From: Escherichia coli
GTDB taxonomy: Bacteria > Pseudomonadota > Gammaproteobacteria > Enterobacterales > Enterobacteriaceae
Length of the DNA: 64,000 bases
Reading direction: 5' to 3' (one strand)
Assembly (NCBI RefSeq): GCF_045037415.1
Contig: NZ_CP173438.1
A program made the translations under genes and the position numbers. Position 1 is the stretch's first letter. Every line of letters starts with the position of its first letter. The notes below the pieces were generated by a model. It ran no database searches. It saw only the letters and a program-made list of their open reading frames with translations, and had not been told where the DNA came from. Shown here in pieces: positions 4,668-27,020 of the stretch.

Positions 4668-4916
4668 TAAATAATCTCACATCTGGTAATAAATATTTCT
4701 TCCATCGTATTTGCGAGCATGATCACGATTATTCATCACGAAAATGTGATCTGTGCTGAAAAATATCCCTTAACCGCCTTGCTTTGTTTTATCACTGTCC
4801 GGATTACGGACAGATTTTAGTATTGTTGTGAAATTATTCTGCTTTATATTTACCCTCAGAGATGGCAACTGAAGCTCTTCCATATGGGGCTTCTTAATCT
4901 GTGATAAGGGTAAAAA

Positions 4917-22727: not shown

Positions 22728-25061
<2,334 letters not shown>

Positions 25062-25312
25062 GGTTCTCTCCCTAAAAATCTGTCTGGAAGGGTAGCGATT
25101 TGTGCGCATTGTCACGATTGAGATTTTTTAAGGAGAGAATAGATTGATAATTTGTAGTTATGTGAAATTGCTATTTTCTGTAGTAAGAATGCATTTTTCT
25201 GATTTTGTGATAAGTAAAATGCATTAGAAAAAGTATGGAGTAAATAAATATGAGGACGAAACTATATGCGTAGCGCCGCTGTAATTAACAACGGCCTACG
25301 GAGATATGTCGC

Positions 25313-26176
25313 TTACTCGATATTCTGAATCTGCTCGCGCATCTGTTCAATCAACACTTTCAGCTCGATGGCGGAGTTTGTCACTTCGGCGTTGATAGAT
25401 TTCGACGCAAGAGTGTTCGACTCGCGGTTGAACTCCTGCATCATAAAGTCCAGACGACGACCAACGGCTTCTTTTTTCTTCAGAATGTTGTAGGTTTCTT
25501 TGACATGCGCTTCGAGGCGGTCCAGTTCTTCGGCAACGTCAATTCGTTGTGCCAGCAGAACCAACTCCTGCTCCAGACGGTTGTTTTCCAGTTGCACCTG
25601 AGCATCTTCCAGCTTCGCTACCAGACGCTCACGCTGCCATTGCAGGATTTCCGGCATATGGGCGCGGACTTTGACCACTTCGGCGGTGACGCCTTCCAGA
25701 CGCTGCTCAATCAACACTTTCAGCGCCTGACCTTCGGTTTCGCGCGCGATGATAAAGTCATCCAGGGTGCCATCCAACGCCGCGAGAATTTCAGCTGCAA
25801 TCGCGTCGAGATCTTGCTCCTGGGCTGCCATCACGCCCGGCCAGCGTAGAATATCAACCGGGTTGATTTCTCCTTCGTCGCTCTGCATTTTTACCCAGTT
25901 CGCGGCAGTTACCAGCTGTTTAGCCAGTTTTTCGTTGAGGATCAGCTCACCTTGCGCGCTAACATCTGGCTCATAGCGCAGAGTACATTCCACTTTACCG
26001 CGCGTCAGGCGAGAACGAATACGCTCGCGAACGACAGGTTCAAGGCTACGGAACTGCTCCGGCAGACGAAAGTAAGTTTCCAGATAACGCTGGTTTACCG
26101 AGCGCATTTCCCAGGTTGCGCTCCCCCATTCACCCTTGATTTCACGCCGGGCGTAGGCGGTCATACTGCGGATCAT
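25313..26176 (-). CDS. yicC: YicC-family stress-induced protein (putative RNase adaptor/endoribonuclease)
   Basis: 287-aa ORF MIRSMTAYARREIKGEWGSATWEMRSVNQRYLETYFRLPEQFR, matches YicC. Confidence 0.9.
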   Translation of the reverse strand: MIRSMTAYARREIKGEWGSATWEMRSVNQRYLETYFRLPEQFRSLEPVVRERIRSRLTRGKVECTLRYEPDVSAQGELILNEKLAKQLVTAANWVKMQSDEGEINPVDILRWPGVMAAQEQDLDAIAAEILAALDGTLDDFIIARETEGQALKVLIEQRLEGVTAEVVKVRAHMPEILQWQRERLVAKLEDAQVQLENNRLEQELVLLAQRIDVAEELDRLEAHVKETYNILKKKEAVGRRLDFMMQEFNRESNTLASKSINAEVTNSAIELKVLIEQMREQIQNIE

Positions 26177-26302: not shown

Positions 26303-27020
26303 ATGCGTCCAGCAGGCCGTAGCAATAATCAGGTGCGTCCCGTTACCCTGACTCGTAACTATACAAAACATGCAGAAGGCTCGGTGCTGGTCGAATTTGG
26401 CGATACCAAAGTATTGTGTACCGCCTCTATTGAAGAAGGCGTGCCGCGCTTCCTGAAAGGTCAGGGCCAGGGCTGGATCACCGCAGAGTACGGTATGCTG
26501 CCGCGTTCTACCCATACCCGTAACGCGCGTGAAGCGGCGAAAGGTAAGCAGGGTGGACGCACAATGGAAATCCAGCGTCTAATCGCCCGTGCTCTTCGCG
26601 CGGCAGTAGATTTGAAAGCACTGGGTGAGTTCACCATTACGCTGGACTGTGACGTGCTTCAGGCTGATGGTGGCACGCGTACCGCTTCGATTACGGGTGC
26701 CTGCGTGGCGCTGGCAGATGCGCTACAGAAGCTGGTGGAAAACGGCAAGCTGAAAACTAATCCAATGAAAGGGATGGTAGCCGCGGTCTCTGTCGGGATT
26801 GTGAACGGTGAAGCGGTTTGCGATCTGGAATATGTTGAAGACTCTGCCGCAGAGAACCGACATGAACGTAGTGATGACCGAAGACGGGCGTATCATTGAA
26901 GTGCAGGGGACGGCAGAAGGCGAACCGTTCACCCACGAAGAGTTACTCACCTTGTTGGCGCTGGCCCGAGGGGGAATCGAATCCATTGTAGCGACGCAGA
27001 AGGCGGCGCTGGCAAACTGA
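26303..27020 (+). pseudogene. rph: Ribonuclease PH gene interrupted by a +1 frameshift (1-nt insertion near 26855); frame 1 terminates at 26897-26899, while the conserved C-terminus continues in the next frame to 27020
   Basis: Frame 1 encodes [14 protein letters not shown]...EYVEDSAAE then [18 protein letters not shown]; the adjacent frame (ORF 26808..27020) encodes [54 protein letters not shown], the normal RNase PH C-terminus. The junction GAGAACCGAC carries one extra A relative to an in-frame GAG-ACC-GAC. Confidence 0.8.

Follow-up and report, generated by a model that had tools for sequence, protein, structure and literature searches.

The 251-bp spacer between yicC and yicG in the E. 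coli DNA analyzed here (64,000 nucleotides of contig NZ_CP173438.1, hereafter the window) probably represents the ancestral, unoccupied form of this junction, from which the majority haplotype of the species would have departed by swapping 77 bp for a cassette carrying dinD, with ST131 being without the gene; we put the probability of this reading at about 0.85. The anatomy of the locus, its frequencies in the population, the state of the outgroups, and the homology of a hairpin in the spacer were observed directly. According to the proposed scenario, a conserved hairpin would have ended the yicC transcript at the ancestral junction and would have been followed by the upstream region of yicG. 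In the majority haplotype, 77 bp including this hairpin would have been replaced by a 1160-bp cassette, which would have supplied its own yicC terminator, a LexA box, dinD (encoding a Bro-N protein), and a dinD terminator. The ST131 lineage would carry the unoccupied haplotype, with no dinD anywhere in the genome.

Anatomy of the yicC-yicG junction

The spacer (25062-25312, no strand assigned) lies between two genes encoded on the minus strand, yicG (24444-25061; 205 aa) and yicC (25313-26176; 287 aa). The yicG coding sequence was defined by its ORF and translation, with a tblastn self-match of 100%, and its ATG is the complement of 25059-25061. Its product belongs to the trimeric intracellular cation channel family (PRK10578), a RefSeq name taken from identical genomes, and its NCBIfam match scores under the cutoff of that model; tblastn indicated 94-96% amino acid identity with Citrobacter orthologues. 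yicC encodes a YicC/YloC family endoribonuclease (TIGR00255, 458.7 bits), and its stop codon is the complement of 25313-25315. The genes of this part of the window run gmk, ligB, yicG, yicC, rph, pyrE, slmA, dut, and coaBC, which is the K-12 order on the opposite strand.

The initial annotation had described yicC and yicG as separated by about 250 bp of AT-rich DNA without ORFs, and this description was accurate. The G+C content of the spacer is 35.9%, compared with 49.2% for the whole window and ~53% for yicC and yicG, and no ORF of at least 30 aa lies wholly within it; mechanical ORF calling returned only frames of 27, 21, and 20 aa, plus a GTG upstream extension of yicG. DinD was not found in the 64-kb window by tblastn with the K-12 and UTI89 alleles (best E = 4.3), and no match to Rfam was obtained in 24900-25500 at E values up to 1. 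On the basis of its low G+C content and the lack of DinD and Rfam matches, the spacer was classified as the dinD site in unoccupied form. It contains no LexA-box-like CTG-N10-CAG sequence, and with neither an integrase ORF nor a duplicated att core it corresponds to an empty attB. In the genomes identical to the window, the RefSeq annotation has no feature between the two genes. A consensus scan for promoters and terminators returned one promoter-like site on the plus strand, which is the level expected by chance, and no terminators.

The spacer can be divided into two parts, both assigned to the minus strand. The part next to yicG (25062-25235) aligns to positions 4701-4874 of the K-12 locus (L001); it is common to the dinD-bearing alleles, although strongly diverged from them, and would comprise the promoter and 5' leader of yicG. 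The part next to yicC (25236-25312) is a 77-bp segment specific to the empty allele, in place of which K-12 and UTI89 have the 1160-bp dinD cassette.

A block just upstream of yicG (TCTCAATCGTGACAATGCGCACAAATCGCTA, within 25062-25130) hardly varied among E. coli, Citrobacter, and Pseudocitrobacter, whereas the other parts of the spacer were highly variable. After the block comes a short hairpin overlapping the ribosome-binding site (in Citrobacter, CCCCC...GGGGG). The block had no match in Rfam and may serve yicG as a promoter, operator, or leader element.

Comparison with K-12 MG1655

The gene order in MG1655 is yicC (b3644), dinD (b3645), yicG (b3646), ligB, and gmk. The K-12 order yicC-dinD-yicG, as given in the initial annotation, is thus correct, and yicC and yicG are not adjacent in the K-12 reference. 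Alignment with MG1655 and other E. coli genomes revealed a site that is empty in the window and occupied by dinD in K-12, UTI89, and NC101. The arrangement rph-yicC-[ ]-yicG-ligB is collinear and in the same orientation in the window, K-12, and UTI89.

K-12 and the window share orthologous yicC (96.5% nucleotide identity) and yicG (95.5%), the neighbors rph, pyrE, slmA, and dut on one side and ligB, gmk, rpoZ, and spoT on the other, and a homologous 174-bp region upstream of yicG. Homology runs to the yicC stop codon and restarts 174 bp upstream of yicG; in the interval, K-12 has 1160 bp (L001 3541-4700) where the window has 77 unrelated bp, and no K-12 counterpart of 25236-25312 was found by blastn or in the alignment. 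The 1160 bp contain a yicC terminator, a LexA box (CTGTATATAAATACAG), dinD, and a dinD terminator, and the G+C content of the cassette is 44.9%, compared with ~53% in the flanking genes. The right edge of the cassette in K-12 showed no convincing target-site duplication and no convincing leftover of the ancestral hairpin or the att core, and no other scar of an insertion mechanism was found.

The empty and K-12 alleles therefore differ through replacement (77 bp versus 1160 bp) and not through a clean insertion or deletion. The proposal that dinD is an insertion holds relative to the ancestral arrangement seen in relatives; as a clean insertion it does not hold, since 77 bp were replaced by 1160 bp.

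Distribution of dinD in E. coli

We examined 5426 complete E. coli genomes. The K-12 1160-bp segment gave a match of any kind in 4714 of them (~87%) and was covered over at least 80% of its length in 4579. The window junction was covered over at least 80% in 689 genomes, 574 of which were at least 99% identical. A chimeric query that joined the 77 bp to the K-12 1160 bp matched 5420 genomes, and its lowest-ranked rows were single 77-bp matches. Comparison of the 5420 genomes with the 4714 that have dinD therefore left 706 genomes that carry the 77 bp and no dinD on any replicon, chromosome or plasmid, at the sensitivity of megablast. The whole-genome absence of dinD was established by proxy, from these 706 complete genomes with the 77-bp segment. 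The view that dinD varies between lineages was borne out by these counts. The difference is an ordinary presence/absence polymorphism of an accessory gene, which is visible in public annotation.

The window was 100% identical over 24 kb to EC958 (O25b:H4-ST131), JJ1886, and JJ1887, and the empty site is essentially confined to ST131 and a few minor lineages. The absence of dinD had been taken as a mark of a non-K-12 strain. The strain is indeed non-K-12, with flanks 96.5-97.5% identical to MG1655, but the absence of the gene is of little diagnostic value: because most non-K-12 E. coli carry dinD, including the B2 strains UTI89 and NC101, it distinguishes little beyond ST131 and a few minor lineages.

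Two further states of the locus were encountered. E. coli O166:H15 JNE21-009 has an internal dinD deletion of ~550 bp (L002 2654-2931); the remaining N- and C-terminal pieces are annotated as pseudogenes ('BRO family protein' and 'DnaD'). In isolate 30224_1#48 (NZ_OZ040716.1, L088 3001-5800), the 77-bp segment is broken after base 52; between yicG and the break there is a copy of ISEc23 (IS66 family), and the other side holds an element that includes a PerC-family regulator. No DinD homologue was found in this locus, where the unrelated element and ISEc23 part yicC and yicG.

The strain background also showed a change in rph (26303-27020). An extra A at 26855 (GAGAACC, versus GAGACC in UTI89) causes a +1 frameshift; the frameshifted ORF stops at 26899, and RNase PH has its last ~54 residues in another frame (26808-27020). 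An exact 61-mer spanning the frameshift occurred in 38 of the 5426 complete genomes, from several independent projects, and because of this sharing it appears to be a real mutation of an ST131 sub-clone. It is distinct from the rph-1 frameshift of K-12 and sits upstream of pyrE. The rph-1 frameshift of K-12 is polar on pyrE.

The junction in related species

A YicC scan with one genome per species listed 80 loci, among which E. fergusonii and the E. coli species representative were not included, and yicG fell within the fetched flank in 42 of the 80 loci listed. In two non-coli Escherichia species and seven species of Citrobacter, yicC and yicG are direct neighbors, and the gap of 195-290 bp between them lacks dinD. 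Adjacency without dinD was also found in Enterobacter, Superficieibacter, Trabulsiella, Buttiauxella, Kosakonia, and others, and in most of the Enterobacteriaceae sampled. The two Escherichia species, whose records are labelled E. coli, are ~90% identical to the window at the nucleotide level. E. albertii is uninformative on the ancestral state because an island occupies the site.

The spacers of Citrobacter and of the non-coli Escherichia resemble that of the window: the genes are adjacent, the distance is 249-259 bp without dinD, a homologous hairpin follows the yicC stop codon, and a conserved block precedes yicG. The middle of the spacer has ~60% identity and could not be aligned with confidence.

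The hairpin lies within the 77-bp segment, just past the yicC stop codon (25269-25300, minus strand), and was identified by folding and comparative pairing as a stem of 13 bp with one bulge. The 91-nt fold that contains it had a free energy of -27.2 kcal/mol (z = -4.67). Homologous hairpins were present at the same place in both other Escherichia species and in all seven species of Citrobacter. Across 11 aligned sequences, the outer stem (GTAG/CTAC) was invariant, pairing was maintained in 95% of cells compared with 22-52% when the partners were slid, and two pairs showed changes on both sides. As expected of a terminator, a G+C-rich stem-loop stands directly 3' of the yicC stop; however, the stem in the window is not followed by a U run (its tail is GCAUAUAGUUUCGUCC), in contrast to the T-run found after the stem in most of the Citrobacter homologues. 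The consensus terminator scan missed the hairpin because no U-tract lies behind the stem, and for the same reason a terminator function of the window hairpin is uncertain. The hairpin is probably an ancestral structure of the yicC 3' end or a terminator.

The empty allele thus appears to keep sequence of the common ancestor that the dinD allele has lost, and from this we infer that dinD was inserted.

Among the 80 species loci listed, dinD occurred at the yicC-yicG site in two, a Pseudocitrobacter MAG, where it lies just downstream of yicC, and Serratia silvae, where it is truncated. DinD identity was 82% for Pseudocitrobacter and 78% for S. silvae, and YicC identity was 93% and 86%, respectively. 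The non-coding flanks of dinD were unrelated among E. coli, Pseudocitrobacter, and Serratia. The position beside yicC in both genera and a DinD divergence roughly in line with that of YicC would also be compatible with another, less likely history, in which dinD would be an old gene of this site that was lost many times.

In eight loci from other genera, the gap between yicC and yicG held unrelated cargo of 1.2-3.6 kb, such as, in Salmonella arizonae, a LysR regulator and a metallo-beta-lactamase-fold protein and, in Klebsiella, a ClC-type channel that may be accompanied by Ada-like genes. Because unrelated cargo fills the gap in several genera, the junction can be regarded as variable throughout Enterobacteriaceae.

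Divergence of the two haplotypes

The window is ~99-99.4% identical to UTI89 (B2) over tens of kilobases, and the mismatches cluster at ~24546-25496. The 500-bp bin 25000-25499 contained 30 mismatches in 420 aligned bases, compared with 0-10 in neighboring bins, and the part of yicC upstream of the cluster was 99.8% identical to UTI89. Over the 174 bp in front of yicG that both haplotypes share, the window was 86% identical to both K-12 and UTI89, whereas K-12 and UTI89 were 97% identical to each other; the identity of the window to the other Escherichia species in these 174 bp was 89%. Another empty allele, that of Z1323HEC0355, had a spacer 88% identical to that of the window. Because the divergence in the 174 bp rivals the distance between species, the empty and dinD haplotypes seem to be tightly delimited, and both are likely to be old.

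The same tract is compatible with a secondary loss, in which the ancestor of ST131 had dinD, as other B2 strains do, and a recombination tract of ~1 kb from an empty-site lineage overwrote it. The confinement of the UTI89 mismatches to this tract, amid otherwise near-identical sequence that includes yicC beyond it, is what such an event would produce. However, two old haplotypes with recombination eroding the linkage on both sides would give the same pattern. No donor lineage was identified, and the spacer of the empty Z1323HEC0355 allele has just the 88% identity given above. We consider secondary loss a reasonable second choice, with odds of roughly one in three. Even if ST131 had re-acquired the empty site, this site would still be the older form at the level of the species.

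Integrase islands at the 3' end of yicC

The last ~20 nt of yicC (25313-25333) coincide with the attB of integrase islands in other strains. In E. coli EC28 (L087 1-21537), a phage-like island of ~20 kb stands between yicC and an intact 77-bp segment. It encodes an integrase, a TOPRIM/DUF927 primase, Ash, an antirepressor, ejection proteins, and PerC, and at its far end, beside the 77-bp segment, the last yicC codons recur as an imperfect ~20-bp repeat. In the type strain of E. albertii, NBRC 107761 (L007 4862-8861), an integrase 80% identical to that of EC28 stands at the same point; the homology of this strain to the window ends at 25323, and the integrase comes after it. yicC is a published target of PICIs (bioRxiv 10.1101/2022.07.18.500453) and of MGIVmi1 (PMC4207636). 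The EC28 and E. albertii islands, the PICIs, and MGIVmi1 use the same chromosomal point, whereas the window has no integrase, island, or duplicated att core there.

These islands bear on a further alternative, in which the dinD cassette would be the last remnant of a decayed integrase island at the yicC attachment site and the window would be the unoccupied attB. Besides the exact position held by the islands, two observations are consistent with it. The dinD- and island-bearing alleles end yicC with GAA-TAA, and the aligned empty alleles of E. coli and Citrobacter end it with GAG-TAA; and, according to PMC4129442, the dinD homologue of Streptococcus satellites or islands adjoins int. Yet the K-12 cassette carries neither an integrase remnant nor a second att copy, no DinD homologue was found within the yicC islands of EC28 and E. 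albertii, occupancy in other genera shows no consistent tie to the GAA/GAG codon, and the dinD flanks of E. coli, Pseudocitrobacter, and Serratia have nothing in common. We therefore regard an origin of the cassette as an island remnant as unlikely.

The DinD protein

DinD of K-12 (L001 3761-4585) scored 488 bits against the NCBIfam equivalog NF008573, with a Bro-N domain (PF02498) at residues 10-105. According to Uranga et al. (2011), cited in PMC4129442 and PMC4849656, DinD is a LexA-regulated inhibitor of RecA strand exchange that also assists in the removal of RecA filaments. DinD also matched the PHROG family phrog_8036 over its full length. Homologues with 51-55% identity were found in Streptococcus satellite phages, and others in Bacteroides and Akkermansia phages and in Zymomonas records of the phage collection. 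The low G+C content of the cassette, together with homologues carried as cargo of mobile elements, fits a horizontally acquired dinD.

Two types of dinD were distinguished by comparison of K-12 with UTI89 (L003 1722-2546), which differ by a cassette swap over codons 13-90, the Bro-N core. Over these residues, the two are 59% identical in nucleotides and 51% identical in amino acids, compared with 97-98% in the remainder. The DinD of Pseudocitrobacter and Serratia resembles the UTI89 type, which is also the type of most dinD genomes other than those of the K-12 type. The K-12-type Bro-N cassette was found in ~1569 of the 5426 genomes, and the junction as a whole shows three states: empty in ~13% of genomes (mostly ST131), K-12-type dinD in ~29%, and UTI89-type dinD in ~58%.

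Both types also matched the PADLOC-DB phage-defence candidate PDC-S13 over the full length (E = 2e-121 for K-12 and 1e-124 for UTI89), and DinD matched the first 267 of 717 positions of a model for the specificity subunit (HsdS) of type I restriction-modification systems. These matches could mean that a one-gene anti-phage candidate has long segregated here in three states, in which case DinD would be an SOS-induced factor against phages or other mobile elements that ST131 lacks; a role in defence would then stand in place of, or beside, the housekeeping regulation of RecA. This interpretation was kept in view because of the PDC-S13 and HsdS matches, the cassette swap, the species-deep divergence, the carriage on satellites, and the position at an att site. 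In the literature searched, we found no paper that links DinD to phage defence or discusses the absence of dinD, and the text of a preprint on E. coli defence-island hotspots does not mention yicC, yicG, or dinD. A defence role is given a low probability, comparable to that of the island remnant.

Remaining alternatives and biological meaning

A simple deletion of dinD from a K-12-like arrangement in an ST131-type lineage is highly improbable and already contradicted by the data: internal deletions do occur, as in JNE21-009, but a deletion cannot create 77 bp that are absent from the dinD-bearing alleles and homologous to the outgroup hairpin, and the haplotypes differ by 14% in the shared part of the spacer next to these 77 bp. 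An assembly artefact from a collapsed or mis-joined region can be practically dismissed, as 689 independent complete genomes have the same junction.

The site indicates that the window comes from an ST131-type strain, a lineage without one LexA-regulated gene. The only reported activity of DinD is the inhibition of RecA filaments in vitro, and the difference is of little importance by itself. If DinD were a defence factor, its absence from the pandemic ST131 clone would amount to a small, testable difference in susceptibility to phages and mobile elements. The locus offers a clear case of an old presence/absence haplotype located where mobile elements also insert.
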